A stretch of 64,000 bases of DNA from an uncultured delta proteobacterium (lineage in GTDB: Bacteria > Myxococcota > UBA727 > VGSZ01): assembly GCA_963775425.1 (NCBI GenBank), contig CAVZJB010000009.1:272616-336615 (forward strand). Direction: 5' to 3'. The notes below the pieces were generated by a model. It had not been told where the DNA came from, made no database searches, and saw only the letters and a list, made by a program, of their open reading frames with translations. The number at the start of each line of letters is the position of its first letter. The stretch's first letter is position 1. The translations under genes were made by a program, and so were the position numbers. Positions 21,037-63,708 of the stretch are shown here, piece by piece.

Positions 21037-21154
21037 GCGCGTCTCCCAGCCGAACGGCGCGAAGTTCCACGCGGCGGCGGCGACGATGCCGAGCAGCAGC
21101 AGCGCCGGACCGCCAATCGCAGCTTGTCGGCGAGATCCCCGCGTCCCGCGTTGC

Positions 21155-22690: not shown

Positions 22691-22825
22691 GGGACGACGC
22701 TACTGCGCGGCCGGGGCGACCGGGATCACAGGCCGGACCCGGCCGACACGGATCCGGGCGGGTGGCGCCAAGCCCCGGGCAAGTCCGCGCGGCAGCCCCG
22801 CGCCAACCCCCATGAGGTCCTTTCC

Positions 22826-23680: not shown

Positions 23681-24023
23681 TCACCGGCGGCGGCGGCGGC
23701 GGCGCATGGCGTCGACGTCGCGCAGGGCGGCGGCGAGGACCTCGGGATCGCCGGCGACGAGCCGCAGCCGGCGGGCCCGATCGAGCTTCTTCAGGGCGAC
23801 CTCGAGGCGGCGCGCCTTGGTCTCCGAGCGCAGCGGGTGCGCGAACGCGAGGGCGACCGGCCGCCGGCACCGCGTGTACGAGCCGCCGCGCCCCGCGTTG
23901 TGGGTGGCGAGGCGCTTGTCGAGAATCGTTGGTGACGCCGACGTAGAGCGAGTCGTCGGCGCAGCGTACGAGGTAGACGGTCCACACGCGCGCGGCGCTA
24001 GCGTCCTCGTCCCCGGCCCACAA
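23681..24023 (-). CDS. GIY-YIG nuclease family protein (UPF0213-like), frameshifted in this sequence
   Basis: N-terminal VWTVYLVRCADDSLYVGVTND is in one frame; LDKRLATHNAGRGGSYTRCRRPVALAF is in the -1 frame. One extra A/T at about 23924 (GAGAATCG). Confidence 0.55.
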
Positions 24024-24056
24024 GGCACGCCGCGCGGTTCACGCAAGAGACGGGCG

Positions 24057-27000
24057 TCAGGCCGCGGAGACGTCGACGCGGCTCTTGCCGCCGCCGAGCG
24101 GGACCACGCGGACCTGCGCGCCGATGCGCTCGGCGAGCGCGGGCAGGTGCGAGATGACGCCGATCTGCCGGCCGGTGGCGCGCAGCGCCTCGAGCGCCGC
24201 CAGCGCCGCCTCGAGGGTCTCCGGGTCGAGGCTCGAGAAACCCTCGTCGATGAACAGGGACTCCACCGGCGTCCGCGCCGCCGACAGCGCCGACAACCCC
24301 AGCGCCAAGGACAGCGACACCAAGAAGGTCTCTCCGCCCGACAGCGAGCCCACCGCGCGCGGCTCGTCGCCGCTTTCGCAATCGACGACGACGAGATCGA
24401 GGTCGAAGCGCGCGCGCTTGTCGCCGCCGCCGGCGCGCTCGAGGCGGTAGCGCGGCGCGAGCATCGCGAGCTGCGCGTTGGCGTGCACGAGCAGCGCGTC
24501 GAGCGTGAGGCTCTGCGCGAACACGCGGAAGCGCGCGCCGTCGGCGGAGCCAATCACGTCGCTCAAGCGCTCCCAGGTGAGCGCCCGTGCGCGCTGCGCC
24601 TCGAGCCTCGGGAGGAGCAGCCCCGCGCGCCGCCGCGCATCGTCGTCGCGCGCGAGCGCCGCGCGGGCGCCGGCCCAGCGCTCGGTCGCGACGGCGAGCG
24701 CCGCCCGCGCGTCGTCGACGGTGTCCGGCGCCTGCGCCGGCGCGCCCTCGCCGTGCGCCTGCGCCGCCGACGCGCGCTCCGCGAGCACGGCCTCCGCGCG
24801 GGCGACGGCGTCGTCGAGCGCGCGCACCGCGGCGCGGGCGCGCTCGAGGGCGCCGTCGTCGAGAGCGCAGGCGCGGGCGAGCGCGTGATCGTCGTCGACG
24901 TCGCTGACGTCGCTGACGTCGCTGACGCGCGGCCCGGCGGCGCCGAGGCCCCCGTCGGGGACGGCGGGCCCCCCTCGGGCGAGCCGCCCACCGGGGCGCG
25001 CCGCGCGGCGGGCCGCCTCGAGCGCGGCGCGGGCGTCGTCGTGCGCGCGGCGGGCGCGCTCGTCGCCGTCGAGGGCGCCGGCGCGCCCGGCCTCGGCCTG
25101 GCCGCAGCGCACCTCGGCGGCGGCCAGGGCGACGGCGGCCTCGGCCGCGGCGGCGCGCGCCTCGTCGAGGGCGGCGGTCAGGCGCCCGCGGACCTCGGCG
25201 ACCGACGCGCCGTCGAACAGCGCCGCGCGGGCCCGCAACAGCTCCGCCTCGTGCGCCCGCGCCTCCGCCGCGCGTGACGCCAGCGACGCCTCGCGCTCGG
25301 CGGCGGCGGCGCGGCGCTGCTCGAGCGCGCGCAGGGCGGGCTCGCTGTGCGCGAGCGCGGCCCGGGCGCGCAGCGCGATCTGCTGTTGCGCGCGCAGCCC
25401 CTCGACGCGCGGCTGCAGCGCGCGCAGCAAGGCGCGCGGCGAGGCGAGCGCATCGGCGGACGCGGCGCGCGCGTCCCCCTCCGCGCCGCCGTGCGGATCC
25501 AGGCGCGCGCGCAGAGACGCCGCGCGCTCGTCGCGGGCGACGACGCGGCCCTCGACGTCGTGCACGCGCAGGGCGAGGGCCTGCTCGTCCGCGGCGACCG
25601 CGGCCCCGGCGTCTGCCAACGCGCGCTCCATCGATCGGACGCGCTCGTCCGCGGCGCGCGCCCGGGCGAGCGCCGCGCGGCCGCGGGCGAGGGCGTCTTC
25701 GTCGAGGGCCGGCCCGCGCCGCTCGGCTTCGAGCCGCGCGACGTCCTCGTCGACGCGCGCCTGCTCGCCCGCCGCGTGCGCCAGCGCGCGCTCGATCTCG
25801 GCGGCGCGCGCCCGGGCCGCCGCGGCGCGCTCGCCCTGCCCACGCGCCGCGTCCTCGAGCGCCTCCAGCGGCGCGGCGGGCGCGTCGACCGCGGCGTCGT
25901 CCATCGGCGCGCCGTCGACGGCGGGGTGCGCGCGGCTCCCGCACAGCGGACACGGCTCGCCGTCGCGCAGCCGCGCGCGCCGCGCGCACGAGAGCGCCTC
26001 GCTCGCGCGGGCGCGCGCCTCGTCCGCGGCGCGCGCCTCGTCGACGGCGGCCGCGCGATCTGCGCGCAAGGCCGCGGCGCGGCTGAGCACACGCGCCCGC
26101 TCGGCGTCGAGCGCGCGGCGGTGCATCAAATCGGCCGCGGCCCCGGCGAGGATGCCGGCGGCGTCGTCGACGTCGCCGTCGCCCACCACCGCCGCGAGCG
26201 CCGCGCGCGCCTGGCCCAGCTCCGCGCCGGCGGCCGCGAGGCTCGCCGCCGCTTCGTCGCGCGCCGCGCGGGCCTCGTCCCGGTTGCGGGCCGCCGCGGC
26301 GGCGAACGCGCGCGCGCCCTCGAGCTCGGTGTCGAAGCGCGCGAGCTTGTCGAGGTCTGCCGCCAGCGCCTCCCACGACGGGATCAGCGCCACCAACGAC
26401 GGCTCGCGGGCGAGCACCTCTTCGGCGCGGTGGAGATCGCCGGCCGCCACCGCGCGGCTGACGGTCAGCTCGGCGAGCTCGCGCTCCACGCCGGCGAGCT
26501 CGTCCGCGGCGCGCGCGTGCGCGTCGACGGCGGCGGCGGTGCCGGCGCGCACGATCTGTTCGTCGAGCCGCAGCGCGCGCTCGAGCTCCGGCTCCGCGTC
26601 GGCGAGCACGCGGGCATGGTGGACGAACGCCTCGTCGGCGCGTGCGCGCCGCTCGCGCGCGCTGGCGACGTCGCCGCGCGCCCGTCGCTCGTCGTCACGC
26701 GCGCGCTCCGCCGCCCGCGCCGCACGCTCCGCCGCCGCCCGCGCCGCGCGCTCCGCCGCCGCGGGCGCCCGCAGCGGCCACACCCGCTCGAGCTCCGCGA
26801 GCTCCTGCGCCGCGGGGGCGCTCGCGCGGGCGCGCCGGGCGGCGTCGACGTCGACGGCCGCGGCTGCGGCGGCGCGCTCGAGCTCCAGCGCGCGCTCGTC
26901 GTGCCGCCGGCGCGCCTCGGCCGCCTCGAGCGCCCCTGCGGCGGCGGCGCGCGCGGCGTCGGCGTCGGCGTCGGCGCTCTCGAGGCACCGGCGCTCGTCG

Positions 27001-27688
27001 TCGCCGGCCGGCGGCATGGCGCGCAGCTCGTCCTCGAGGGAGCGCAGCGCGCGCGCCTCCTCCTTGCTGCGCTCGTGGGCCTGCACGGAGAGCGTCGAGT
27101 ACAGATCCGTGCCCGTGATCTTTTCGAGGAGCGCCGCGCGGTCGTCGGCGCGCGCCTTCAAGAAGCTCGCGAAGCCGCCCTGGGCGAGCAGCACCGAGCG
27201 GCAGCACTCGTCGAAGGTGAGGCCGAGGCGGGCGCGGATGTGCTCGAGCGTGTCCTCCTTGCCGTCGCCGGCGCGCTCGCCGGTGACGACGTCATGAAGC
27301 GTGAGCACCTCTTCCTGCAGGCGGCCGAAGGCCTGGCCGCGGGCGCGCCGCACCGTCCAGCGCGCGCGCCACACGCGCCCGTCGACGCCGCTGAAGTCCA
27401 CCTCGGCGAACGCGGTGGCGGCCATCCGGCGCACGAGGCTCTTGGGATCGTTGGCGCGCAGCGACGCGCCGTCCTTCTTGAGCGGAGATCCGCCGCGCCC
27501 CGACAGCCGCGGCGTGCGGTTGAAGAGCGCGAGGCACATCGCGTCGAGGAGCGTGGACTTGCCCGAGCCGACGGGGCCGGCGATGGCGAACAGGCCGAGG
27601 TGGCACAGCGGCGGCTGCGCGAGAATCGACGGCGAAGCCGCCCTTGAGCGACGCGAGGTTGGCGCCGCGGATGGCGAGGATCCTCACG
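24057..27688 (-). CDS. sbcC: Exonuclease SbcC (SMC-like ATPase), frameshifted near the 5' end in this sequence
   Basis: Long coiled coil, CPLCGS zinc hook, C-terminal ABC signature. The N-terminal VRILAIRGANLASLKGGF and Walker A GPVGSGKSTLLDAMCLALF lie in a different frame, separated by one extra base at about 27625 (GAGAATCG). GTG start overlaps the sbcD stop (GTGA). Confidence 0.85.
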
Positions 27689-28973
27689 GCCGCTCCCCCT
27701 CGTCGGCGGCCCTCGCCGGCACGGTGGACGGCGGCACCGTGGACGGCGGCACCGTCGACGACGGCGCGACGGCCTCCATCAGCTCGAAGAAGGCGCCGCG
27801 GATGTCGTCCGGGACGGCGCCGCCGTAGGTGCGCTCGTAGAGCCGCTCGAGCACGTGAACGGGCTCGATGTCCTGCAGCGAGGCGGCGGCGGCGACGTCG
27901 GCGAGGGGGCCGCCGTCGCCGGCGAGCGCCCGGTGCACGCGCACGAGCCGCACCGGCTTCCCCTCGAGCGCCGCCTCCACGCGCGCGCGCAGGTCGGGGC
28001 ACGGGGCGTCGAGCTTGACGCGCACCTCGAGGAGCGGCCGCGCGTCGACGGGGGCGTCCGGGAGATCGAGCGCGCGCAGGCGGGCGAGGACGTCGTCGAC
28101 GCCGGCGGCGGCCTCGGGGACGCGCAGCAGGTCGACGGCGCGCGGGACGAAGAGCGGGCGGACGCGGGCCTCGGGGAGGTCGACGACGAGCACCTGGTGG
28201 CGGTAGGCGCGCTCGGTCATCGACAGCGGGATGGGCGAGCCGCTGTAGCGGACGTTGTCGCGGCCGGCGACGTCCTGCGCGAGGTGGAGGTGGCCGAGCG
28301 CGACGTAGTCGACGTCGTCGGGGAAGATGTCGGCGGGGAGCGCGTGGACGTTGCCGAACACGGGGCGCTCGCTGTCCTCCGTGAGGCGCCCGCCCTGCAT
28401 GTGGCAGTGCCCGAGCGCGACGAGCGACTGCCCGGGGTGGCGCCGCGCGCGCGCGTGGTCCAGCACGCGGGCGTAGGCGTCGGCGACGCCGGCGACGACG
28501 GCGTCGCTGACGTCGGCGGGCTGGGGCGCGAGGTCCGCCATGCGCAGGAAGGGCAAGGCGGCGCACCACGCCTCGACGTCGCCGCCGTCACCGGTGAGCG
28601 GAACGACGCAAGACGCCGCGTCCACCTCGCCGGACGCGCGGGGCAGGGCCCCAACGACGTGCACGTCGAGCTCGCGCAGGATGGGGCCGGGCGCATCGAG
28701 GCGCGGCGCGGCGTCGTGGTTTCCGCCGATGACGACGATGTCGAGCCGCGGGAAGCGGCGCCGCGCCTCGGCGAGCCAGCGGTAGTACTGCGACTGCGCG
28801 GACGCGGGGGCGTTGCCGGTGTCGAAGACGTCGCCGCAGACGACGACGGCGTCGGCGCGCTCGTCCTCGATGCGATCGAGCAGCCACGCCATGAAGCGCT
28901 GGTGCTCCACGGCCCGCGAGAAGCCGCCGAGGGTCTGCCCCAGGTGCCAGTCGCCGGTGTGGATCAGCCGCAA
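27684..28973 (-). CDS. sbcD: Exonuclease SbcD (Mre11-like phosphoesterase)
   Basis: MRLIHTGDWHLG and GNHD motifs. TTG start. Contains a 15-nt x3 tandem repeat encoding PSTVP. Confidence 0.85.
   Translation of the reverse strand: MRLIHTGDWHLGQTLGGFSRAVEHQRFMAWLLDRIEDERADAVVVCGDVFDTGNAPASAQSQYYRWLAEARRRFPRLDIVVIGGNHDAAPRLDAPGPILRELDVHVVGALPRASGEVDAASCVVPLTGDGGDVEAWCAALPFLRMADLAPQPADVSDAVVAGVADAYARVLDHARARRHPGQSLVALGHCHMQGGRLTEDSERPVFGNVHALPADIFPDDVDYVALGHLHLAQDVAGRDNVRYSGSPIPLSMTERAYRHQVLVVDLPEARVRPLFVPRAVDLLRVPEAAAGVDDVLARLRALDLPDAPVDARPLLEVRVKLDAPCPDLRARVEAALEGKPVRLVRVHRALAGDGGPLADVAAAASLQDIEPVHVLERLYERTYGGAVPDDIRGAFFELMEAVAPSSTVPPSTVPPSTVPARAADEGERP
27721..27780. repeat. 15-nt tandem repeat (caccgtggacggcgg x3, plus one degenerate copy) inside the sbcD 3' end
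   Basis: Seen directly in sequence; encodes (PSTVP)n. Confidence 0.6.
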
Positions 28974-47662: not shown

Positions 47663-47829
47663 GGCCCCCGAATGAACAACTCGATCGCCCTCGCGGCCGA
47701 TCCATCGCCGCTGGCTTCGTTGCTCGTCGGTCACGTGGCGACGGCCACGCTCCCTCCTCGCGCCTCGCCATCGGCGCGCCTCGACCGCGATCATCGACCG
47801 ACTTGTTCATTCGAGGGCCCTTAGCCCTC
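47653..47829. mobile_element. MITE-like palindromic element: ~34-bp imperfect terminal inverted repeats (GGGCCCCCGAATGAACAA / TTGTTCATTCGAGGGCCC) flanking ~100 bp, bounded by TTAG on both sides, lying exactly between two convergent TAG stops
   Basis: Seen in sequence: left arm 47653-47686, right arm 47789-47829; ~30 of 34 positions are complementary. Confidence 0.45.
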
Positions 47830-50800
47830 TAGATCGCGTCGGCCGCGCCGACGTCGGCCTGCGGGGCGGCGGCGAGGGAGCGCGGACGCGCGGGGCGCTT
47901 GTCGACGACCTCGTCGATGAGGCCCGTGATGCACGTGGCCATGCGCTCGATGTTCTCGCTCCGAAACAGCTCGAGGTGCGAGCCCTTCACCGTGACGACG
48001 TCGATGCGACCCTTGACCCAGCGGCGCCAGCCGTTGGTGGGATCGTCCATGCGCGTGGCCGGCCAGCGGAAGGGATGCTCGGCGACAAAGAGCAGGAGCG
48101 GCGCCGTCTCTCCGTTCTGTTTGGGCATGTACGCGAGCTGGGCCTGCGTGAGGATGGCCCAGATCTGCTTCATGCGATCTTCGCGCTCACGGTCGGCGCC
48201 GTCGACGGCGGGCGCGAGCAGCTCGCCGAGGCCGAGCTTGAAGAGCAAGCGGCGGCGCACGTTGTCGATGCGATCCTTCACGTAGTTGAAGCGGCCCAAG
48301 GCGTCACGCCTGCGCAGCTCCTCGACATGCGCGAGCGCGCGCTCCATGCGCGGAAGCTTCTCGGGATAGCCGGGCGCGAAGGCGTCGAACGCGACGATGG
48401 CGCCGACGTTCTTCCCGCGCCGGCGCAGCCGGTGCGCGAGCTCGTAGGCGACCATGGCCCCGAAGCTGTAGCCGCCGACGACGAGCTGCTGCCCCGACAG
48501 CCCGCGCGCGTCGAGCTCGCGCTCGTAGGCCGCGGCGATCTCCTCGACCGACTCGCGTGGCAGGTCTTCGCCGTCGGCGCCGATGGCGGTGAAGGCGTAG
48601 ACGGGTTGATCGGGCCCGAGCCGCTGCGCGAGCTCGCGAAAGATGAACACCTGGCCGCCCGCGCCGGACACGATGAGCAGCGGCGGGCGCGTCCCGTGCG
48701 CGTTCAACACGACGAGGTGGCTCTGCGGCTCGGACGTCGCGCGCTCGCCGTCGCCGAGGCTCTGCGCGAGCGCGGCGATGGTGGGCTTCGCCAGGATGCG
48801 CGACAGCGGGACGTTGATGCCCAGCTCCTTCTTCAGCCGCGACACCACCACGACCGCGAGCAGCGAGTGGCCGCCCATGTCGTCGAAGAAGTCGTCGTGA
48901 ACACCCACCGGCGCGCGCAAGACGTCGCTCCACAGGGCGACGAGCTTCTCCTCGAGCGGGGTGCGCGGTGGGGACAGCGCGCGCCGCTCGAGGACGAGCG
49001 CCGGATCAGGGAGCGCCGCGCGGTCGAGCTTGCCGTTGGAGGTGACCGGCAGGCGGTCGAGCCGCACCAGGGCCGAAGGCACCATGAAGTCCGGCAGCGC
49101 CGCAGCCACCGCCGCCTTCAACGACGGCGCGTCGAAGGGCTGCGCCGCATGGAGCGGCACGACGTACGCCACCACGGCCTTCGCGCCGGAGGCGTCGGGG
49201 CGCGCGACGCACACGACGTCGCGCACGCCGGGCTGCTTGCGCAGCACGGCTTCGATCTCGCCGAGCTCGACGCGGAAGCCGCGCACCTTCACCTGGAAGT
49301 CGGCGCGCCCGAGGAACTCCATGGTGCCGTCGTCCCAGAAGCGCGCGAGGTCGCCCGTCTTGTAGATGCGCTCGCCCGGGAGGAACGGATCGGGGAGGAA
49401 CCGCTCGGCGGTGAGCTCCTCGCGGTTGAGGTAGCCGTCGGCGAGGCAGAGGCCGCCGATGTAGAGGTCGCCGGCGATGCCGGTGGGCGCCGGGCGCATG
49501 TGGCGATCGAGGATGTAGTAGCGGGCGTTGTCGATGGGACGGCCGTAGGGGATGGAGCGCCACGACGGGTCTACGTGGCCGATGCGGTGGAAGTTCGACC
49601 AGATGGCGGCCTCGGTGGCGCCGCCGAACGACACGGGTTCCACACCCTCGAACACCTCGCGCAGGTGGTCGGGCAGCTTGACCGGGATCCAGTCGCCGGA
49701 CATGAGCGCGAGCCGCAGCGTCGACGACGGCGCGCGCGCCGGAAAGAACGGCGCGAGCCGCGCCAGCGCCGGCGGCGCGGAGTCCCAGATGGTGATGCCG
49801 GGCGCGGTGAGCTTCTTCACCAGGAGCTCCGGCTCGCGCAGCGTCTCCACCGAAGCGATCTCGACGACGGCGCCGGCGCCGAGCGCGCCGAAGACGTCGT
49901 AGACGGACAGGTCGAAGCTCGGGGACGTGACGAACAAGAGCTTGTCGCGCGGGCCGACGCTGAAGGTGCGGTTCACCCACTGCAGCGTGTTCGTCACCGC
50001 GCGGTGCGTGAGCACCACGCCCTTGGGCCTGCCGGTGCTGCCCGACGTGTAGATGGCGTAGCTCACGTCCCTCGAGGCGGCGACGCGCGCGGGCCGGGTG
50101 TCGGGAGCGCCCTGCACGTCCGCGCCGTCGACGCCCAGGATGGGGATGCCCGGCGGCGGCGCGCCGTCGCCGTGGCCCCACGGCAGCGACGACGACGTCA
50201 CCACCGCCACCGCTCGCGCGTCTTCGACCATGAAGCGCGCGCGCTCTTCGGGGTAGCCCGGGTCCACGGGCACATATGCCGCACCGGACTTGGCGATGCC
50301 GATCATCGTGGTGACGAGGTCGAAGTTGCGGTCGAGCAGGAACGCCACGTATTGGCCGGGCTTCACCCCGCGGGCGCGCAGCGCGTGGGCGAGGCGGTTG
50401 GCGCGCCGCTCCACCTCGGCGAAGGTGAGCGTCTCTCCCTCGAATTCCAGGGCGACGTCGTCAGGCCGCGCGTCCACCTGCTCCTCGAAGAGCGTGTGGA
50501 TGAGGATCTCGTCTGAAAACGGCGCGGCCGTGTCGTTCCAGCCGAAGACCTGCCGCTTGCGGGTCTCGTCGTCGAGGAGGTCGACGCGCGCGAGGGGCTT
50601 TTCGGGATCCGCCGCGACCTGCGCGCACACCGCGGAGATCTGCTCCACCAGCGCGCGCACGCGGGGCGTGTCGACCGCGCCTTCGTCGACGACGAGCGAC
50701 GCCTGTCCGCCGCTCAGGCGCAGCGCCAGGACCGCGCCCGGCGGGAGGGCCTCGCCGTCGTCGAGCAGGACGGCCACGCACGACAGCGCGCTCGTCTGGA

Positions 50801-52202
50801 GCGCGCGGCTGGGGGAGAGCACAGGGGTACGCGCGACGAGGTCGACGAGGTAGCCGCCGCGGCGGCGGAGCTCGTCGAGGTCCTTTCGCACCGCGCGCAC
50901 CAGCTCCGCGAAGCCGCGCCCCGCGTCCAGGCCGACGAACAACGGGACGGTGGGCGCCAACAAGGCCGAGGCGGCTTCGAAGCGCTTGCGCACGGGGCCG
51001 TCTACGAGGGCGACGCACAGCTCGTCGCGGTCGCACAGCGTGGCCATGGCGAAGGAGAACGCGGCGGTGGCTGCGGCCTCGATGTCATCGGCGAAGCGCG
51101 AGCGCAGCTCGGGCAGGGGGAGCGAGTGCACCGACGTTTGTCCCGGCGGCCCCGCCGCCGACAAGAACGGCACCGCCGGCGACTCCGCGCGCGCGAGGCG
51201 CTTGACGAAGAACGGCTCGGCCTCGGCGATCTCGCGGGTGATCGCCGCGCGGCCCTCGCGTCCGGGATCGACGATCTGTCCACCGGGCTTGAGTCCCAGG
51301 TAGTGCAGCGCCTCCTCGACGGAGATCTCGACTCCGCTCAGGAGCGACGTCCGCTCCACGCGCAGCGCCCCCTGGGCGCACGCCACCACGAAGGAGCGGG
51401 CGTCGGCCTCGAGGACGGTGCCCGGGCCCCCGCCCGCGCCGGACACCGACGCCTCACGCACGACCACCGCGCGCTCCCCCGCCGACGTCTTGTGCACGAG
51501 CTTGGCGAGGGCGAAGCGGTTGATGTACGGGCCCCAGTCGCAGGCGCGCACGAGCCGGTCGAGCTCGGCGGCCGTCTGGCTCCAGTCGAGAGTGGCCAGG
51601 GCCGCGGGGCGATCGTGACGCGAGAAGATCAGCCGCTCGCCGCCGGGGTTCGTCCCCTTCGGCTGGGGGATGCCCGGCGGCGCGCCGTGCTCGAGCTTCT
51701 CGACGAGAGACTTGAAGGCGTCGAGCGCGAGCGCGGCGTTCTTGATGTTGAGGGAGACGGAGCTCTCGCGCTCCTCGATGTCGACGTCGCGGCGCTCGAG
51801 GATGTCGCCGGTGTCGATGCCGTCGGCGAGGCGATGCCACACCACGGCGTGCGTGCGCTCGCCGCGCAGGAGCGCCCACGCCGAGCCGTGAATGCCCGCG
51901 TAGCGGGGCAGCGGTCCGTCGTGGAAATTGACGGCGTCGATGCGCGCCTTGGTGAAGTGCTCGGCCTTGAGGATGGCGGGGTACGTGATGGACAAGAGGA
52001 CGTCGATGTCGCCGGCGGCCATGAGCTCACCGATGCGCGCGCGCCCGTAGACCGGCACGTCCTTGCCCCGCGCCCACTCGGCGAGGGCCGGGTTGAGCGT
52101 GACGAGGCCGGCGAGGGCGTGCCCCCGCTCCAGGAGGAGCTCGCCGCACGAGACGGCGAGCGGCTCTTCTCCGAGGACGAGGCAGCGAAGGTGCGCGGGC
52201 AC
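47829..52202 (-). CDS. Non-ribosomal peptide synthetase, single module: formyltransferase-like domain, ~260-aa C-domain-like linker lacking HHxxxDG, adenylation, PCP, thioesterase
   Basis: Fmt-like NFHDGPLPRYAG. A-domain motifs YTSGSTGRPKG, YKTGDL, GRADFQVKVRGFRVELGEIE, NGKLDR. PCP motif DDMGGHSLL. TE motif GYSFG. Confidence 0.9.
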   Translation of the reverse strand: MPAHLRCLVLGEEPLAVSCGELLLERGHALAGLVTLNPALAEWARGKDVPVYGRARIGELMAAGDIDVLLSITYPAILKAEHFTKARIDAVNFHDGPLPRYAGIHGSAWALLRGERTHAVVWHRLADGIDTGDILERRDVDIEERESSVSLNIKNAALALDAFKSLVEKLEHGAPPGIPQPKGTNPGGERLIFSRHDRPAALATLDWSQTAAELDRLVRACDWGPYINRFALAKLVHKTSAGERAVVVREASVSGAGGGPGTVLEADARSFVVACAQGALRVERTSLLSGVEISVEEALHYLGLKPGGQIVDPGREGRAAITREIAEAEPFFVKRLARAESPAVPFLSAAGPPGQTSVHSLPLPELRSRFADDIEAAATAAFSFAMATLCDRDELCVALVDGPVRKRFEAASALLAPTVPLFVGLDAGRGFAELVRAVRKDLDELRRRGGYLVDLVARTPVLSPSRALQTSALSCVAVLLDDGEALPPGAVLALRLSGGQASLVVDEGAVDTPRVRALVEQISAVCAQVAADPEKPLARVDLLDDETRKRQVFGWNDTAAPFSDEILIHTLFEEQVDARPDDVALEFEGETLTFAEVERRANRLAHALRARGVKPGQYVAFLLDRNFDLVTTMIGIAKSGAAYVPVDPGYPEERARFMVEDARAVAVVTSSSLPWGHGDGAPPPGIPILGVDGADVQGAPDTRPARVAASRDVSYAIYTSGSTGRPKGVVLTHRAVTNTLQWVNRTFSVGPRDKLLFVTSPSFDLSVYDVFGALGAGAVVEIASVETLREPELLVKKLTAPGITIWDSAPPALARLAPFFPARAPSSTLRLALMSGDWIPVKLPDHLREVFEGVEPVSFGGATEAAIWSNFHRIGHVDPSWRSIPYGRPIDNARYYILDRHMRPAPTGIAGDLYIGGLCLADGYLNREELTAERFLPDPFLPGERIYKTGDLARFWDDGTMEFLGRADFQVKVRGFRVELGEIEAVLRKQPGVRDVVCVARPDASGAKAVVAYVVPLHAAQPFDAPSLKAAVAAALPDFMVPSALVRLDRLPVTSNGKLDRAALPDPALVLERRALSPPRTPLEEKLVALWSDVLRAPVGVHDDFFDDMGGHSLLAVVVVSRLKKELGINVPLSRILAKPTIAALAQSLGDGERATSEPQSHLVVLNAHGTRPPLLIVSGAGGQVFIFRELAQRLGPDQPVYAFTAIGADGEDLPRESVEEIAAAYERELDARGLSGQQLVVGGYSFGAMVAYELAHRLRRRGKNVGAIVAFDAFAPGYPEKLPRMERALAHVEELRRRDALGRFNYVKDRIDNVRRRLLFKLGLGELLAPAVDGADREREDRMKQIWAILTQAQLAYMPKQNGETAPLLLFVAEHPFRWPATRMDDPTNGWRRWVKGRIDVVTVKGSHLELFRSENIERMATCITGLIDEVVDKRPARPRSLAAAPQADVGAADAI

Positions 52203-55138: not shown

Positions 55139-57064
55139 TCACAGGGTCTTGAGGAACGCGACGAGGTCGGCCTTGTCCTGGAAGGACAGGTTGGAGCCGT
55201 GGCCCATCTTGTCGGTGGCCACCAGGCGCTCGACGACGTCCTCGAGCGTGGCCGCGGAGCCGTCGTGCAGGTACGGCGCGCTCTCGATGAGCCCGTGCAG
55301 CACCGGCGTGGCGAACTCCGAGGACCAATCGAGGTTGTCGCCGCCGGTGCCGACGCTGTGGGTGAGGTTGTCGGTGAAGGCGTCGCCGGCGTGGCACTGG
55401 CCGCAGCCGGCGCTGCCGTAGAACAGCTCCTCGCCGTGGGCGACGGCCTGCGCGTCGAGGCCGCTCGGCGGCATGGGTGCCGGGATCTGGTCGAGGAATT
55501 TGCCGACCTTGTTCATGGCGGTGGCGTCGAGGCCGTTGCCGCCCATGCGGCCCACGATGGTGACGTCGCTGATGCCGGCCATGTTCGGCACGCTCTGATC
55601 CCAGTGGAAGGGCTCGGTGCCGAGGATGCCGCCCCACAGCGCGGGCGCGTTGCGCGGGCCCTCGGCGAAGTGCCAGGTGGTGCCGTCGGGGCCGCCGCCC
55701 GGGTGGCAGGAGTCGCAGGAGATGGCGCCGAACTTCGTGAGGTCGTCGTTGACGCTGTAGAAGAGCACGCGGCCCTCACGCACGTCGGCGGGCAGCACGG
55801 GCGCCGCAACGGTGAACGTGTTGTCGACGGAGATCTTCTTGAGCGCGCCGGCGCTGCCCCCGGCGTAGCGAGACTTGGCCGAGGCGTCGGCCGGCACCGC
55901 GAAGCTCGAGATGGTGTCGTCGAAGGCGTTGTAGACGTACGCCGTGGTCCCGTCGGGGGAGACCTGGATGGACTCGACGCCGACCTTCAGCGGCACCACC
56001 GCGACGATGGACGGCTCGCCCTCGCCGATCACCGGCCGGCGCACGATGACGTTGCCCGAGCCGCGCGCGACCACGAGCTGGAGCTTGCCGCCGTCGACGG
56101 TGGCGATCTCCTGCGGCCCGTTGAAGGTCTCGTCGTGCAGGAGGTTGCGGTTGAGCGCGTCGACCACGGGCGCGGCGTCACCGGCGTGCTCGGGGGCGCT
56201 GCCGTTGGCCTCCTCGAGGGGCCGGTTCTCGTCGGACAAGAGCGAGCCCGACGCCGGGTCCACGCGGCTGACGGCCGGGTTCACCGCCGGGTAGCCCGTG
56301 GGGCCGTCGACGTAATACGTGACCGAGGGCTGACCGGCGAAGTTGGTGCCGCCGAGGAACTGGGCCGGGTCGTTGTTGCACTCGACGTGGGGGACGACGA
56401 CGCCGTCGCCGTCCGCGCTCGCGGTGATGCTCCCCATCTGGTTGGGGAAGAAGAACTGCTTGGAGGGCAGGTGCATGTCGACGTCGGCCGCGACGTTGTC
56501 GCCGTCGATGATGGACACGTAGCCCGCGGTGAAGTGGGTGACGGCGACGCGGCCGTCCTCGAGGCGCACGATGCCGCGCGGGTCGCCGTGGTGGAGCGTG
56601 ATGCGCGAAGCGACGCGCGTCGGATCCGCGAGGTCGATGCGCGCGAGGTCGCCCTCGCCGGCGACGGCGACGAGCACGGCGTGACCGACCTGAACGAGGC
56701 CGAAGGGATCGCTGCCGACGTCGGCGGTGCCGTCCACGGTGCCCTTCTCGACGTTCACCACCGAGACGGTGCCGGCGTAGCGCGCGCTCACGGCGACGCG
56801 GCCGTCGTCGAGGACGGTGAGGCGGTGGGGATACCCGGGCACCGCGACCTCGCCGAGCTTGGCGCCGCTGTGGGCGTCGACGGCGCGCACCAGGTCATGG
56901 TCGGCGAGGGCGACGTAGAGAGTCTTTCCGTCCTTGGAGATCTGCATGCGGCCGGTCTGCGGCGCGCTCGCCGGACCGATCTTCACGTCGGGCTCGCAGC
57001 CCGATGCCAGCGAGAGGGAGAGCAGCGCGATGGGTACGGCGACGGCGAGGTGTCGAACGAGCAT
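55139..57064 (-). CDS. Lipoprotein with YVTN-type beta-propeller repeats and C-terminal di-heme cytochrome c domain
   Basis: Lipobox LASGC. CDSCH and CGQCH heme motifs. Confidence 0.65.
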   Translation of the reverse strand: MLVRHLAVAVPIALLSLSLASGCEPDVKIGPASAPQTGRMQISKDGKTLYVALADHDLVRAVDAHSGAKLGEVAVPGYPHRLTVLDDGRVAVSARYAGTVSVVNVEKGTVDGTADVGSDPFGLVQVGHAVLVAVAGEGDLARIDLADPTRVASRITLHHGDPRGIVRLEDGRVAVTHFTAGYVSIIDGDNVAADVDMHLPSKQFFFPNQMGSITASADGDGVVVPHVECNNDPAQFLGGTNFAGQPSVTYYVDGPTGYPAVNPAVSRVDPASGSLLSDENRPLEEANGSAPEHAGDAAPVVDALNRNLLHDETFNGPQEIATVDGGKLQLVVARGSGNVIVRRPVIGEGEPSIVAVVPLKVGVESIQVSPDGTTAYVYNAFDDTISSFAVPADASAKSRYAGGSAGALKKISVDNTFTVAAPVLPADVREGRVLFYSVNDDLTKFGAISCDSCHPGGGPDGTTWHFAEGPRNAPALWGGILGTEPFHWDQSVPNMAGISDVTIVGRMGGNGLDATAMNKVGKFLDQIPAPMPPSGLDAQAVAHGEELFYGSAGCGQCHAGDAFTDNLTHSVGTGGDNLDWSSEFATPVLHGLIESAPYLHDGSAATLEDVVERLVATDKMGHGSNLSFQDKADLVAFLKTL

Positions 57065-57331: not shown

Positions 57332-58552
57332 TCAGTCCGCCTGCGGCGGTTCCTCTTCGCTCGCCCGCCGCGTGCGCACCCAGGCGTCGGAGCGCTTCCA
57401 GGGACGGGCGACCACGAGCTTCCACAAGACGTACGCCGGCGCCGTCAGCAGAGCGAAGAGGCCGGCGACGCCGGTGCCGGAGAACGCCACGCCGCGCAGG
57501 ACGTAGGCCGCGAGCGACAGCGTCGACAGCGCCCACAGCGGCCACGCCGGCGACGGCCCGCCGGCGACGAAGACGTGGGCGCCCTCGACGGCGAGGCCGG
57601 CGACGACGACGAGCGCGGGGTACGAGATCGGCGGGACCATGAGGTCGCAGGCGAGATTGAAGAGCAGCAGCGAGCGCTGCGCCACCGCCGCCTTCAGCAC
57701 GCGCGGGAGGAGCGTGCGCATCAGGCCGAAGCGGCCGCCCTCCCAGCGGCGCCGCTGCGACAGCGCGGTCCCGGCGCTCACCGGCGCGTCGGAGCGGATC
57801 CACGTCTCCGGAGCGAACGCCACGCGGACGCCGTTCATCCCGAGCCGCACGCCGTACTCGACGTCCTCGACGACGCCGTACACCTCGTGCGGCACGCGCT
57901 CGAGGCACTCCCGTGAAAAGGCCATGCCCGTGCCGCGCAGCCCGACCGAGAGGCCGAGCCGCTCGCGCCCGAGCGAGCGCACGCCGTTGATCATCGCCAT
58001 CGCGATGGCCTGCAGGCGCGGCCGCCAGCCCGCGCCCGGGTTCTTCACGGCGTTTTCGACCTGCATCGCGAGGTCGCCGGCGACCACGCGGGCGCCCACC
58101 GCGCGCCAGAGGTTGCCGGCGACGATGGTGTCGGCGTCGACGACGATGACGCCCTCGACGCGCTCGTCGCCCTCGAGCGCCAGCGCGTGCGCGAACGCGG
58201 CCTCGAGCGCGTAGCCCTTGCCGCGGCGCACGTCGTCCCTGCGCTCGAGCACGCGGGCGCCGGCCTCGCGGGCGAGGGTGGCGGTGTCGTCGGTGCAGTT
58301 GTCGGCGACGACGAGGACGATCTTCTTGTCCGCGGGCGCGTCCGCGGCGAGCAGGCTCTTCACCGTGGCCGCGATGCCGTCCTTCTCGTTGTGCGCCGGC
58401 ACCACGCAGACGAGGCGCGGCGTGTCTGCGTCGGCGGGGGCCGGCGGAGGCCGCTTGCGCCACGACAGGAGCGTGAGGAACCCGAGGTACAGCCACACCG
58501 GCAACACGGCGACGGCGAGCACCCACGAGAGGACCTCGAGCGCCGCCGGCAT
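57332..58552 (-). CDS. Family 2 glycosyltransferase, membrane-embedded processive type
   Basis: DNCTDD and DAD motifs and a Q-R-R-R-W (QxxRW) motif, with flanking TM helices. Confidence 0.7.
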   Translation of the reverse strand: MPAALEVLSWVLAVAVLPVWLYLGFLTLLSWRKRPPPAPADADTPRLVCVVPAHNEKDGIAATVKSLLAADAPADKKIVLVVADNCTDDTATLAREAGARVLERRDDVRRGKGYALEAAFAHALALEGDERVEGVIVVDADTIVAGNLWRAVGARVVAGDLAMQVENAVKNPGAGWRPRLQAIAMAMINGVRSLGRERLGLSVGLRGTGMAFSRECLERVPHEVYGVVEDVEYGVRLGMNGVRVAFAPETWIRSDAPVSAGTALSQRRRWEGGRFGLMRTLLPRVLKAAVAQRSLLLFNLACDLMVPPISYPALVVVAGLAVEGAHVFVAGGPSPAWPLWALSTLSLAAYVLRGVAFSGTGVAGLFALLTAPAYVLWKLVVARPWKRSDAWVRTRRASEEEPPQAD

Positions 58553-58599
58553 CACCGCACGTTCTCGTCGAGGCCGTGTGCGCGCCGCATGGCGGGAGC

Positions 58600-59721
58600 A
58601 TGCCATCGGCCGGCGCGGCGCGGAAACGAGAAGCGCGCGGTGTCCGCGACGGCGGCGGGGCGTCGGGCACGGCGTGGTACGCTCGCGCGGTGGGGCACGG
58701 CACCGTCGTCGCGATCGTGGCCGTCGTCGTCGCCGGCGAGGGCTGCGCGGGCTGCAACGGCACGTTCACCCTGTCGTGCGCCGCCTCCACCGACTGCCCC
58801 GACGGCCTGTCCTGCGCCCCCGACGACATCTGCCGCCCCCATGACGCCGGCTCCGGCGACGGCGGCCCCCCCGTCGACACAGGCCCCACGGGCGACGGCG
58901 GCTCCCCCGGCGACGGCGGCCCCGTCGACGGCGGGCCCCCCGTCGACGGCGGCGAGGGCGAGGGAGAAGGAGAGGGCGAGGGGGAAGGCGAGCAGAGCGC
59001 CGCGAGCTGCGCCGCCGCGCTCGCCGCCGACCCGGCCGCGCCGAGCGGCATCTATCGCATCGGCGGCGCCGGCGTCGAGTGCGACATGACCACAGCGGGC
59101 GGCGGCTGGGCGCTCTTGTTCCGCTTCGACGCGCAGACGGACGACTGCCCCGCGGGGCTCGTCCGCGACGCCGCCAGCGGGGGCTGCGGACGCCCGCTGG
59201 ACGCGGCGCAGACGTCGCTGTTCCTGCCCGCGCCCGAGCCCTTCACGGAGCTGCGCGGCGAGGTCCGCGCGCTCGGCTTCGGCTCGCCCGACGCGTTCTT
59301 CGACACCGCGCCCACCATCGACGGCAACTACGGCGACGGCATCAGCTTCACCGTGGACTCGCCGCGCGTCCACGTCTTCACCCTCGCCCACGCCATCGCC
59401 GACGGCGCGAGCGGGTTCACCGTCCATCGCTGTCCGTGCGCGGGCGGAGATCCCCCGCCGGGCTTCGTCGGCACCGCCTACCTCTGCGAGGCGGCCACCA
59501 CCGCGTTCGTCGGCGGCGCGCGCACGCTCGACACCACCGACGTCCTGTGGGACGGGGCCGATCTCTTCCCGGGATGCGAAGGCGCGCCCGAGTCCGCGCC
59601 CGACTTCCAGGTCGCGCTCGCGGCCGAGGACCCCGGCCCCGTCGAGTTGCGCATCCTCCACAACGAGGTGAGCAGCGACGAGGACACGTACATCACCCGC
59701 GCGGAGCTCTGGGTGCGCTGA
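58600..59721 (+). CDS. Secreted protein with Cys-rich N-terminus, GEGEGE linker and fibrinogen-related (FReD) C-terminal domain; start uncertain
   Basis: GIYRIGGAGVECDMTTAGGGWALLFR matches the fibrinogen C-domain core (VYCDMTTDGGGWTV). Confidence 0.5.
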   Translation: MPSAGAARKREARGVRDGGGASGTAWYARAVGHGTVVAIVAVVVAGEGCAGCNGTFTLSCAASTDCPDGLSCAPDDICRPHDAGSGDGGPPVDTGPTGDGGSPGDGGPVDGGPPVDGGEGEGEGEGEGEGEQSAASCAAALAADPAAPSGIYRIGGAGVECDMTTAGGGWALLFRFDAQTDDCPAGLVRDAASGGCGRPLDAAQTSLFLPAPEPFTELRGEVRALGFGSPDAFFDTAPTIDGNYGDGISFTVDSPRVHVFTLAHAIADGASGFTVHRCPCAGGDPPPGFVGTAYLCEAATTAFVGGARTLDTTDVLWDGADLFPGCEGAPESAPDFQVALAAEDPGPVELRILHNEVSSDEDTYITRAELWVR

Positions 59722-59989
59722 CATACGCGCGCTGCGCGGCCTGCGCCGACGACGCGCGGCCGAGCTGCTCCCGCAGCGTCCGCTCCGCCGCGCCGGCGGC
59801 GACGGTGCACGCGTGGACGAGCCGGAGCAGCACCGTCCGGTCCTCGAGCGTGAGGCGGCAGAGGCCGGCCTGCGCGCACGCGGTGGTCGCGGCCTCGAGC
59901 GCTTCGCCCGCACCGACGACGTCGCCCTCGGCGAGCTTCTGCTGTGCGTGCGCGAGCCGATCGCGCAGGTGCTCCTCGACGCGCGTCAT
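59693..59989 (-). CDS. Hypothetical helical protein downstream of fliS (possibly FliT-like)
   Basis: ATG overlaps the fliS stop (ATGA). 98 aa. Confidence 0.35.
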   Translation of the reverse strand: MTRVEEHLRDRLAHAQQKLAEGDVVGAGEALEAATTACAQAGLCRLTLEDRTVLLRLVHACTVAAGAAERTLREQLGRASSAQAAQRAYVSAPRAPRG

Positions 59990-60366
59990 GGTTGCGGTCG
60001 CCCGGCGCGCGCGACCGCCTCTTCGAACGCCTCGGCGATCGGGTTGAAGGTGCGACGCGCGTCGTCGAGGGCGGCGCGGTCGCCGCGCAACGAGACGTAG
60101 AGCCGGGTGAGAACGAAGCCGTAGACGTCGTCGAGCATGGTGCACAGCTCGGGGGCCTTCGACGGATCGAGCGTGGACCGGAGCTCGTGCACGATGTCGA
60201 TGGCCTTGCGCACCGGCGTCGCCGCCTGCGCGGCGCGACCGAGGGCGAGCTCGCCGTCGGCGAGGAACATCTGCTTGCGCGCACCCGCGAGCAAGAGGAG
60301 CAGCACGCGCTCCTTCGACGCAGTGGCCGTCTGAGTTTCTTGATAGCGCGCCGACGGCAACATCAC
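59986..60366 (-). CDS. fliS: Flagellar export chaperone FliS
   Basis: YQETQTATASKERVLLLLLAGA...IVHELRSTLD pattern typical of FliS. 126 aa. Confidence 0.75.
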   Translation of the reverse strand: MMLPSARYQETQTATASKERVLLLLLAGARKQMFLADGELALGRAAQAATPVRKAIDIVHELRSTLDPSKAPELCTMLDDVYGFVLTRLYVSLRGDRAALDDARRTFNPIAEAFEEAVARAGRPQP

Positions 60367-61700
60367 CCACCTCCGTTGTTCTTGCTCGCGGTCTCCTGGC
60401 TGGTGAGGAAGTTGCCGATGGCCTTCAGGCCGCTCAGCACCTTCTCCATCGCCGCGAACTGCGCGACGAGTCGCGCGCGGTACTGATCCGCGCGGTCCTG
60501 CAGTTGCGTGATCTGATCGCCGACGCGCTTCTTCTTGTCCGCGAGGCCCTGGCTGCGCACCGTGAGCGCGCCGTTGACCGAGTCGGTGAACGCGTTGACG
60601 AGGTCGTCGGCGGCGGGCTTGAGCCCGGCGAGGATGCGATCGGCGGCGCCGGGATCCGACGCGACCGCCTTGTCGAACGCCGCGTCGTCGATGGTGACCT
60701 TGCCGTCGCGGTCGCTCTTGAGCCCCAGGTCCGCGAGCGTACGCATCCCGGTCGAGCCCACCGCCGTCGTCAACAGCGCCTGCATGCGCGCCTGCACCAG
60801 GCGCATGGTGGGGTCGCCGCCGAGGGTCTTCGTGCGGTCCGTGTTGGCGTGGATGTCGAGCTCACCCTGCACCGCGCCGACGATGGTGTTGTAGGCGTCG
60901 ACGAGCTTCTGCAGCGAGGCTTTGGTCTGGTCGCCGTCGTCGGCGATGACGATGTCCTCGGGACCGGTGCTGACCTGTTTGAGCGAAAGCGTGGCGCCGG
61001 GGAGGGCGTCGTCGATCTCGTTGGTGCGGCGCTCGAAGGCGAGGCCGTCGAGGGTGAGCTTGGCGTTTTGCGCCGTCACCACCGTCGAGAAGCCGAGCGC
61101 GTCGGCGGTGGTCCCCGAGAGCGTGAGGGCGCTGTCGGGCGTGGAGCCGACCTCGAAGCCCGACGTCGTGCGCGCCACGCTCAGGTAGTCGCTGGTGCCG
61201 TCGTTGAGGACGTTGGCGGTGACGGGCGCGCCGCTCGCGCGGATGGCGGAGGCGAGGTCACCGAGGCTCATGCCGTCGGTCACGTCGATGTCGTAGCCGG
61301 TGCCGTCGGCGTCGATGTGCAGCGTGCCTGCCGACAGGAGGGCCGACGTGCTCTGCGCCGCGCTCCGGCTCTTGGCCGCTTGCGCGAGCTGCGAGACCTC
61401 GAGGGTGGTGCGGCCGGCGCTCGCGCCGGGGGACGCGGTGACGTCGGCGGCGGCGGGCGCCTGCGCGACGCGCGCGCCGTGCGCGCCGGTGTCGACGAGA
61501 CCGTGGAGCGCGGTCTGGAAGGCGAGGAGGTTCGAGCGGAGCGACCCGATCGACGAGATCTGCACGTCGATGGCGGTCTGGCTCTGCTGGAGGGTGGCGA
61601 TCGGCTTGCTTTGCAGAGAGACGAGCTGATCCACGATGGACGCGGTGTCGATCCCGGACGCGAGGCCGCTCGCTTGGAATGACGGAATCGTCGTGGACAT
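60363..61700 (-). CDS. fliD: Flagellar filament capping protein FliD
   Basis: N-terminal SGLASGIDTASIVDQLVSLQSKPI and FliD-type C-terminal coiled coil. Confidence 0.75.
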   Translation of the reverse strand: MSTTIPSFQASGLASGIDTASIVDQLVSLQSKPIATLQQSQTAIDVQISSIGSLRSNLLAFQTALHGLVDTGAHGARVAQAPAAADVTASPGASAGRTTLEVSQLAQAAKSRSAAQSTSALLSAGTLHIDADGTGYDIDVTDGMSLGDLASAIRASGAPVTANVLNDGTSDYLSVARTTSGFEVGSTPDSALTLSGTTADALGFSTVVTAQNAKLTLDGLAFERRTNEIDDALPGATLSLKQVSTGPEDIVIADDGDQTKASLQKLVDAYNTIVGAVQGELDIHANTDRTKTLGGDPTMRLVQARMQALLTTAVGSTGMRTLADLGLKSDRDGKVTIDDAAFDKAVASDPGAADRILAGLKPAADDLVNAFTDSVNGALTVRSQGLADKKKRVGDQITQLQDRADQYRARLVAQFAAMEKVLSGLKAIGNFLTSQETASKNNGGG

Positions 61701-61778
61701 GGCGCTCTCCAAGAGGGGTGAACGAGGACGAAGCCGCCGCACGGATCACCCGGGTCCGTGCGGCGGCTTCAGGAGCGC

Positions 61779-62645
61779 TCAGCCGAGGAGCTTGAGGGCG
61801 AGCTGGGGCGCCTGGTTCGCCTGGGCGAGCACCGAGACGCCGGCCTGCACGAGGATCTGCGCGCGGCTCATCTCCGCCGTCTCCGAGGCGACGTCGACGT
61901 CGCGGATGCGGCTGTTGGCGGCGGACACCGACTCGGACGCGCTGGCGATGGTCGACAGCGCGCTCGTGAGGTGGTTGGCGGAGGCGCCGAGGTCGGCGCG
62001 GAAGCCGGAGACCTCGTTGATGGCCTGGTCGATGACCGCGAGCGCGGACTGCGACTGCGTCGCGCTGGTGGCGAGGTCGGCCGCGCCGCCCGTCTTCAGG
62101 GTCGCGATCGCCGAGCCGCCGCCGCCGGTGCCGAGGGCCGCCGTGGTGACCGCCATGCCGGTGGTGTCCACCTTGATGACGTCGTTGGCGGTGCCGCGGA
62201 TGCCGACCTGGAACTGGAACGCCGCCGCGGCGCCGTAGACCTTCACGCCGTTGAACTCGGTGGTGGCGCCGATGCGGTCCACCTCGGCGAGCAGCGAGTC
62301 CGCCTCGCTCTGGATGTAGCCCCGCTCGGTGGTGCCGATGCCGTCCGAGGCCGACTGCATGGCGAGCTCGCGGACGCGGGTGAGGATGTTGGTCACCTCG
62401 TTGAGCCCTGCCTCGGCGGTCTGCGTGACCGAGATGCCGTCGTTGGCGTTGCGCGAAGCCTGGTCATAGCTCTTGAGCTGCGCGGTCATGTTCGCGCTCA
62501 CGCCGAGGCCGGCTGCGTCGTCGGACGCCTTGGTGATGCGGTAGCCGGAGGAGAGCTTGGCGAGCGAGGAATCGAGCGAGCTCTGATTCATCATCAAGCT
62601 GTGCTGCGCGGCGAGGGACGAGAGGTTGCTGCGGATGGACATCAT
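61779..62645 (-). CDS. fliC: Flagellin
   Basis: Conserved flagellin N-terminal (RIxSAxDDAAG) and C-terminal (LAQANQ..LALKLLG) helices. AAGGAG RBS. Confidence 0.9.
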   Translation of the reverse strand: MMSIRSNLSSLAAQHSLMMNQSSLDSSLAKLSSGYRITKASDDAAGLGVSANMTAQLKSYDQASRNANDGISVTQTAEAGLNEVTNILTRVRELAMQSASDGIGTTERGYIQSEADSLLAEVDRIGATTEFNGVKVYGAAAAFQFQVGIRGTANDVIKVDTTGMAVTTAALGTGGGGSAIATLKTGGAADLATSATQSQSALAVIDQAINEVSGFRADLGASANHLTSALSTIASASESVSAANSRIRDVDVASETAEMSRAQILVQAGVSVLAQANQAPQLALKLLG

Positions 62646-62828
62646 GGCGGGGCTCCTTCTTTCTGCTGAGCATTTCGTTCGTGTGTGCTCACGGAGAGGT
62701 TCGTCACGGCGCGGGCCCTGATTAAGATCTGCGTCGCCGGATCAACCCGCGCGGACGAATTCGCCGCACAAAAGAGCGCAAGGACGGAGCGAGCCCCGTC
62801 CTCATCACCGCGGCGCGGACCCGCGGGG

Positions 62829-63708
62829 TCACAGCTTGTCGAGGATGGTGAGCTGGAAGCTCTTGGCGCTCACGGTCAGCGCGGCGTCGAGCGAGCGCTC
62901 GGCGAACGCGAGAATCCGTCGCCGCCTTCGCGATGTCGGCGTCGGTCAGGCCGGCGCGCCTGCCGTCGGCCGCGTCCGCCACGTCGCCCGCGGCGGTCTG
63001 CGCGGCGTCCAGGCCGAGCTCGATGCCGCCGGCGTCGGCGCGGCCGGCGCCGACCTGCGCGATGCCCGAGCGCAGCGTGTCGATGCTCGCGCGCAGCCCC
63101 GTGGTGTCGTTGGTGGACAGCGCGGTGGCCAGGTCGCCGAGGGCCTGGAGGACGTCGACGCCGCCGCCGGCGCCCTTGATGACGACGTCGGCGCGCACGG
63201 ACACGCCCTGCACCACGCCGGGCGCGACCTCGATCTGCCGGACGCCGGCGTCGCCGGTGTAGCTGCCGTCGGCCTGGAACGGGGCCGCGTTGTCGACGGT
63301 GCCGCCCATGACGAAGCGGCCGCCGACGTCGATGTTCAACGCGCTCACGGCTTCGGCCAGCATCTGCGTCGCCTGGCTCGCGGCGCTCGCGCGATCCGCG
63401 CTGTTGTAGGTGCCGTTCGACATCTGGATCGCGAGCTGCTGCGCGCGCGAGAGCGTGTTGATCACCGACGACAGCGCGCCGTCGGCGGCGTTGACGTCGT
63501 CAAGCGCCCGTGACGTCGTGGTCGAGATGCCCGAAGCGCGCACCGCGGCGAAGCGCTCGCGCGCGATCTGCCCCGCGGAGTCCGTCTCCCAGGGGTGCCG
63601 CACGGAGACGCCGGTGGAGGCGCGGTCGGTGGCCTTCTCGTAGCGCTCGCGCGCGGTCTGCGTCGCGGCGTTCGCGTTGGCGAAGATGGAGCTATCAGTG
63701 ACGCGCAC
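62829..63708 (-). CDS. flgL: Flagellar hook-associated protein 3 FlgL, frameshifted near the 3' end in this sequence
   Basis: N-terminal STGVSVRHPWETD motif. After ...DADIAKAATD the frame degenerates. Deleting one A/T at about 62907 (GAGAATCC) restores ...LAFAERSLDAALTVSAKSFQLTILDKL*. Confidence 0.65.

Follow-up and report, generated by a model that had tools for sequence, protein, structure and literature searches.

Does a bacterium make a fibrinogen-related domain (FReD), the module typical of animal ficolins and tenascins? The question is raised by one gene in a 64,000-nucleotide stretch of DNA from an uncultured delta proteobacterium (contig CAVZJB010000009.1, assembly GCA_963775425.1; the whole stretch is called the window here), whose 381-codon product carries the peptide GIYRIGGAGVECDMTTAGGGWALLFRFD. 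An earlier note, made from the sequence alone, saw in this peptide a close match to the FReD core and suggested a lectin or adhesin. Judged by its matches, the FReD-like part of the window protein is a head of ~45 residues only, corresponding to the NEC module. The ~195 residues behind it form a body that is a beta-sandwich distinct from the FReD B+P body and without a curated model. Below, we set out the evidence for this composite domain, weigh what it might do, and describe where else it occurs.

High GC content makes the reality of the gene a fair concern. GC is ~70–75% throughout the window, so that long open reading frames (ORFs) appear in all six frames; at the ~72% found here, an ORF could in principle be spurious and its motif due to chance. 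However, GC at codon positions 1/2/3 is 0.73/0.62/0.94, the GC at third positions in this frame (GC3, 0.94–0.95) compares with 0.88–0.98 for neighboring genes, and the motif is matched at an E-value of 2e-10. Moreover, hundreds of full-length homologues keep its Cys and His positions, which already refutes this alternative; we are virtually certain that it is wrong. Because of the neighbor-like GC3 and these homologues with conserved Cys and His, 58576–59721 (+) is the true coding frame. Candidate starts are GTG 58576 (residue 1 in our numbering), ATG 58600, GTG 58690 and GTG 58717. The first ATG of the ORF, 58600, is the start chosen earlier; the annotated start (58606) of the divergent family-2 glycosyltransferase (GT2) gene would overlap it. 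Exact-sequence look-ups of the product read from ATG 58600 and of the window's flagellin matched no record. The GTG at 58690 would leave a gap of ~138 bp to the GT2 gene, provided that the latter begins at an internal Met.

The quoted peptide is real: GIYRIGGAGVECDMTTAGGGWALLFRFD is encoded at 59047–59130, and translating the window in all six frames yields no other match to CD..GGGW or GGGW. Its residues, 158–185 of the 381, lie at the N-terminal border of the globular C-terminal domain, rather than in the C-terminal position it had been given. The NCBIfam model NF040941 (GGGWT_bact, 'fibrinogen-like YCDxxxxGGGW domain-containing protein') recognizes residues 144–181 over profile positions 1–46 of 46 (E 2.1e-10, 40.5 bits, cutoff 30). 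The isolated domain scores 41.2 bits, and 9 of 11 close relatives pass the model as well. Searching PDB sequences with phmmer returns XEEL, a Xenopus intelectin (E 0.009), and tenascin-R (E 2.5), both only over residues 136–189. A profile of 99 family members, run against solved proteins, ranks intelectin-type lectins first (E 1e-11 to 5e-9), followed by tachylectin-5A (E 4e-5), fibrinogen beta/gamma (E ~1e-4), the COL3A1 and COL1A1 C-propeptides (E ~1e-3), and ficolins, angiopoietins, tenascins and FIBCD1 (E ~2e-3 or weaker). All of these matches stop at profile positions ~94–125, soon after the GGGW strand. It is this confinement of all hidden Markov model (HMM), profile and hhalign matches to the head that limits the FReD-like part to ~45 residues.

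The head signature, S-C-x23-CDMxxxGGGW, is carried also by FReDs, intelectins and fibrillar-collagen C-propeptides. Its counterpart in the literature is NEC, a Cys-bridged alpha-beta3 unit at the N-terminus, which Pradel et al. (2004, J Exp Med, PMC2211786) describe in the fibrinogen family, fibrillar-collagen C-terminal globular domains, neurexins, ficolin and intelectin. In our AlphaFold2 (AF2) model, residues 142–185 likewise form a helix and three strands (H7–13, E20–24, E27–32, E40–47, domain numbering) with Cys145 and Cys169. The proteins of that paper are animal and apicomplexan, whereas here NEC heads a bacterial protein with another body. NF040941, for its part, differs from the domain described here in covering 46 positions of the head only; it is silent on the ~195-residue body, and its name conveys no function.

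Head and body belong together. An exhaustive HMMER search with residues 139–381 yields 1881 cluster representatives at E≤1e-3, of which 670 reach E≤1e-10, and head and body make up one conserved unit, since most homologues align over the full 243 residues. The window protein aligns end-to-end (residues ~142–381) with this unnamed family of GGGW head plus C-P-C beta-sandwich, including C191, C204, G255, H266, C286 and C304. The signature of the body comprises C191, C204, Y252-x-D254-G255, R264-x-H266, C286-P-C288, C304, D326, C334, E357-x-R359 and a final strand ELWVR. Across the 99 members, W178, C191, P192, C204, G228, Y252, D254, G255, S257, T259, R264, H266, C286-P-C288, C304, L324, D326, C334, F344, R359 and E369 are invariant or nearly so.

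AF2 run on the 99-sequence alignment (pLDDT 95.9, pTM 0.92; a model from a 5-sequence alignment reached pLDDT 55 and was discarded) places about nine more strands after those of the head. Foldseek finds no match at E≤1e-3 for the modelled domain; its best full-length analogues are procollagen C-propeptides and carbohydrate-binding modules (CBMs). Structural matches also include phage receptor-binding and baseplate proteins and Cry/Vip toxin domains, and a search of viral models (BFVD) gives weak tail-fibre/CBM-like fold matches only. Fibrinogen, ficolin, tenascin, angiopoietin and intelectin chains are absent among the matches listed by either structural-search method. The GON domain (Pfam PF08685) has no match in the window protein and is reached by 3 of 99 relatives (best E 0.025), and no description of the body was found in the searchable literature.

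A canonical FReD of the ficolin/tenascin type, taken from animals and binding acetylated sugars through its P-subdomain pocket, would explain why the CDMxxxGGGW head matches FReD N-termini and why some relatives pass Pfam Fibrinogen_C on this segment. FReDs (PF00147; ficolins, tenascins, angiopoietins, fibrinogen beta/gamma) indeed have in common with the window domain an S-G-x-Y ... (Y/F/E)CDM..GGGW(T/A) segment and a Cys pair. However, their B and P subdomains are unmatched by HMM, profile or fold, and the window body is a Cys-rich beta-sandwich whose C-P-C signature is not present in FReDs. Fibrinogen_C (a ~220-residue domain) has no match in the window protein at gathering score, nor does any Pfam family at E≤10, and the relatives that pass do so over just model positions 2–58 of 221. 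The FReD core seen in the earlier note therefore holds for the head, as the NF040941 and XEEL matches indicate, and fails for the B and P subdomains and for a full FReD. We consider a canonical FReD highly improbable.

By sequence, the closest solved relatives are the intelectins, or X-type lectins (PDB 4wmq, 4wmo, 7e1e), matched over ~65–70 residues; the alignment with 7e1e is 107 residues long, taking in a poorly aligned N-terminal region. The likeness extends to the Cys after the GGGW strand, but it ends ~20 residues past GGGW, and the Ca2+/diol-binding region of intelectins appears not to be common to the window domain.

By structure, it is the procollagen C-propeptides (PF01410 COLFI; PDB 5k31, 4ae2, 6fzw) that provide the best full-length analogue among solved structures (Foldseek probability 0.80–0.91). 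They carry the same head, and animal members of the window's family likewise sit C-terminal to collagen helices (PF01391). The domain could be a COLFI-like assembly domain, serving oligomerization (e.g. trimerization) of a structural matrix protein rather than binding of a foreign ligand. Yet sequence likeness stops at the head and TM is only ~0.38. The COLFI HMM (233 positions) has no match in the window protein, and relatives reach positions 4–108 at most. Aligning the family profile by hhalign (local mode) gives 31% for the COL1A1 C-propeptide and 7.9% for the human fibrinogen gamma C-domain, with confident columns in the head only; these values are corroborative only. Neither a collagen nor a coiled-coil segment occurs in the window protein, and composition analysis finds no collagen G-X-Y periodicity in its spacer. 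In addition, two or three tandem copies of the domain occur within single chains (P0006, P0010, L004), an arrangement ill-suited to a chain-registration nucleus. Fusion to collagen does not discriminate between a lectin and a COLFI-like role, because ficolins and collectins have the same layout. Taken together, we deem an assembly role unlikely.

The other structural analogues, beta-sandwich CBMs (8xmz_B, a porphyran-binding CBM; CBM16 2zew; CBM22; CBM36), align at 7–9% identity over 117–142 of the 243 residues, a fold-level likeness only, without evidence of homology or common binding residues. A sandwich of this kind could also be a secreted jelly-roll enzyme with a NEC head, acting as a glycan hydrolase or lyase or through another His/Asp/Glu/Arg-dependent activity. 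We regard such an enzyme as quite unlikely: no enzyme family in Pfam or NCBIfam matches by sequence, the modules that match best by structure are non-catalytic, and collagen tails and tandem repeats typify binding domains rather than enzymes.

What precedes the domain is consistent with export. The product begins with a basic stretch ahead of a hydrophobic segment, TVVAIVAVVVAG, which is likely the core of a signal peptide. Homologues have short signal-like N-termini that end in Cys. In the window protein, the canonical lipobox L-[AS]-[GA]-C was not found at residues 43–54 plus EGCAGC, and lipoprotein status is uncertain because no clean lipobox follows the hydrophobic core. The Cys-rich region and the GEGEGE linker that had been described ahead of the motif are both present (Table 1). 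Within the former, C68-x5-C74-x5-C80-x5-C86 is kept among close relatives as C-x4-5-C-x4-6-C-x3-6-C, and TIGR04201 (Myxo_Cys_RPT) gives a sub-threshold match (E 0.63, 10 bits, cutoff 25). The latter takes the form of a (GE)7 tract at 58954–58992 (counted from E127 as six EG plus E) and ends a spacer that is probably a flexible acidic linker; relatives P0002–P0004 and L005 likewise have GE-rich linkers.

From these features, we infer an exported, modular extracellular protein that starts with a hydrophobic, signal-type N-terminus, continues through a small knot rich in Cys and a flexible Gly/Pro/Asp/Glu spacer of acidic character, and ends in a 240-residue globular domain. This composite domain, in which the ~45-residue NEC/FReD-A head is followed by the beta-sandwich, would be stabilized by disulfides and act as a ligand-binding head for a glycan or a matrix/cell-surface polymer. 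On its spacer, the head would be kept at a distance from the cell or be secreted. A candidate binding face is formed by R264/H266 and E357/R359 on neighboring strands, with Y252/D254 just ahead of the adjacent strand. The partner modules of relatives are exclusively extracellular; within the window's family, they are Big_9, cadherin-like, PKD, C-type lectin, DUF4215 or Stig1 repeats. We give about an even chance to the domain being such a ligand-binding head, in a lectin- or adhesin-like protein on a flexible acidic spacer.

Relatives are found on both sides of the bacteria–animal divide. Named close relatives are proteins from metagenome-assembled genomes (MAGs) of "Deltaproteobacteria bacterium", Myxococcota and Labilithrix, and two of them are already named "fibrinogen-like YCDxxxxGGGW domain-containing protein" in NCBI records. 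The closest show 57–58% (P0001), 50% and 41–50% identity, varying with the query; L005 shows 44% over domain residues 5–243. The top profile matches listed are animal-type and include Geodia barretti and Amphimedon queenslandica, the proteins of the latter being named "Fibrinogen C-terminal domain-containing protein" in UniRef. Many other animal-type matches sit on Mb-scale, gene-poor contigs with genes resembling long interspersed nuclear elements. A collagen triple-helix region lies N-terminal to the domain in ~40 of the 120 matches listed. In many animal-type members, the head is reduced (only 57% have the CDM Cys); these members retain both the body and the GGW strand and carry extra Cys pairs. 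On a 4.0-Mb contig that is poor in genes and apparently eukaryotic (ENA ERZ25068685), two adjacent single-exon genes (L003:3001–4248 and L003:5772–7010) both code for a collagen triple helix with the domain after it, which suggests that the animal branch has undergone tandem expansion locally.

The head alone is far more widespread, and is not rare in bacteria as had been supposed: besides having its own NCBIfam model, it is confirmed at at least 187 loci in GTDB species-representative genomes. These include Myxococcota, Bacteroidota, Bdellovibrionota, Gammaproteobacteria, phyla of the candidate phyla radiation and one Nanoarchaeota MAG. Among them, L005 and L004 (two tandem copies) have the whole domain, a lower bound because the five sequences that seeded the search favor the GGGW head. 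In other bacterial GGGW proteins, the same head stands on differing bodies, nearly all of which end in ..W[VI]R, with fusions to EGF_CA arrays, DUF4215, F5/8-type-C, DUF4842 or a type IX secretion system (T9SS) sorting tail. At least one more body type, with the pattern '...GHTA.LP...W..DD......H.IW[VI]R', follows the head in L006, L009, L011, L041, L074 and others. Its carriers belong to Bacteroidota and Myxococcota and in some cases also have an F5/8-type-C domain or a T9SS tail; Fibrinogen_C covers only positions 2–50 there. Two proteins of ~1187 residues from Halobacteriovoraceae/Bacteriovoracaceae MAGs (L027:3007–6567 and L038:3007–6564) carry five tandem GGGW-headed domains with bodies unlike those of the window family.

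Horizontal acquisition, raised in the earlier note, leaves no recent trace in composition, GC3 or distance tree. The base composition and GC3 of the gene match those of surrounding genes. In a neighbor-joining distance tree, whose labels 'bacterial-like' and 'eukaryote-like' are composition proxies and which carries no support values, the window protein lies in a 22-sequence clade that is bacterial-like in 19 of 22 members, and its ten nearest sequences are all bacterial-like. The same two properties of the tree leave the direction of any ancient transfer between bacteria and animals undecidable from it. E357 is kept by 82% of the bacterial-like members and by 97% of those that are eukaryote-like. 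It is possible, if doubtful, that the 240-residue domain represents an undescribed fourth NEC-headed branch beside FReDs, intelectins and procollagen C-propeptides, with its own beta-sandwich and with Y-x-D-G / R-x-H / C-P-C as a new ligand site. Its occurrence in both Myxococcota-type bacteria and early-branching animals, with collagen tails in sponges, would then imply an old inter-kingdom transfer, whichever way it went.

The window protein is a fresh member of an already known kind without characterized function, since NF040941 would already name it in the PGAP annotation pipeline and NEC has been a separate module since 2004. It offers no hint of a new kind of genetic system. For annotation, the CDM..GGGW motif should not be labelled "fibrinogen-related domain": what it identifies is a small and mobile NEC head that sits on at least four different bodies and is common enough in bacteria for a dedicated NCBIfam model. 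The remaining, modest interest lies in the body, which has neither a model nor a known ligand. It is conserved in Myxococcota-type bacteria as well as in sponges; in the latter it stands at the tip of collagen stalks, much as the recognition heads do in ficolins and collectins. Finding a ligand would define a new lectin-like family and could inform the origin of collagen-tailed recognition proteins and procollagen C-propeptides.

Table 1. The gene under study, the parts of its product, and its neighbors (positions in the window)
Feature	Position	Strand	Basis or remark
Whole ORF	58576..59721	+	381 codons plus stop
Hydrophobic segment TVVAIVAVVVAG, then EGCAGC	58702..58737 (residues 43–54)	+	Kyte-Doolittle 11-residue mean up to 3.15
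Cys-rich stretch, six Cys (C57–C86)	58744..58833	+	Sequence; partly conserved in close relatives
Low-complexity G/P/D-rich spacer ending in (GE)7	58837..58992 (residues 88–139)	+	Composition G21 P8 D7 E7 of 56
Head module with ECDMTTAGGGW	58999..59130 (residues 142–185)	+	NF040941, phmmer, profile search, AF2
Body, beta-sandwich continuous with head	59131..59718 (residues 186–381)	+	Conservation, AF2; no Pfam or NCBIfam model
Family-2 glycosyltransferase, membrane, divergent from the gene	57332–58606	-	
641-aa di-haem peroxidase-like protein	55139–57064	-	Cytochrome c peroxidase/MauG and RoxA-like matches in C-terminal third only
FliS, FliD and two flagellin-type genes, convergent with the gene	59986–63708	-	Second flagellin-N-containing gene at 62722–63708

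The neighborhood of the gene (Table 1) has no conserved gene neighbors in common with those of four relatives, nor do those four have any in common among themselves. The gene looks stand-alone, because neighbors differ across all homologues examined. We therefore rejected the idea that the gene works together with the neighboring GT2 or flagellar genes, neither of which accompanies the homologues examined. Scanning around the gene found no promoter or terminator consensus and no usable inverted repeats.

Elsewhere in the window, positions 24001–28000 stand out by a GC of 0.79–0.81, compared with 0.70–0.75 elsewhere, and an ORF in this part (24057–27539, -) has as its sole match an SbcC/RAD50 Walker-B near the C-terminus. 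A single-module gene resembling nonribosomal peptide synthetases (47829–52202, -) encodes formyltransferase N- and C-terminal domains, an adenylation domain, a peptidyl carrier protein and a thioesterase. Finally, in a 978-aa ORF (20678–23614, +), a bacterial thrombospondin type-3 repeat (TSP3_bac) lies close to the C-terminus, and the product is possibly another secreted matrix-type protein of the window.
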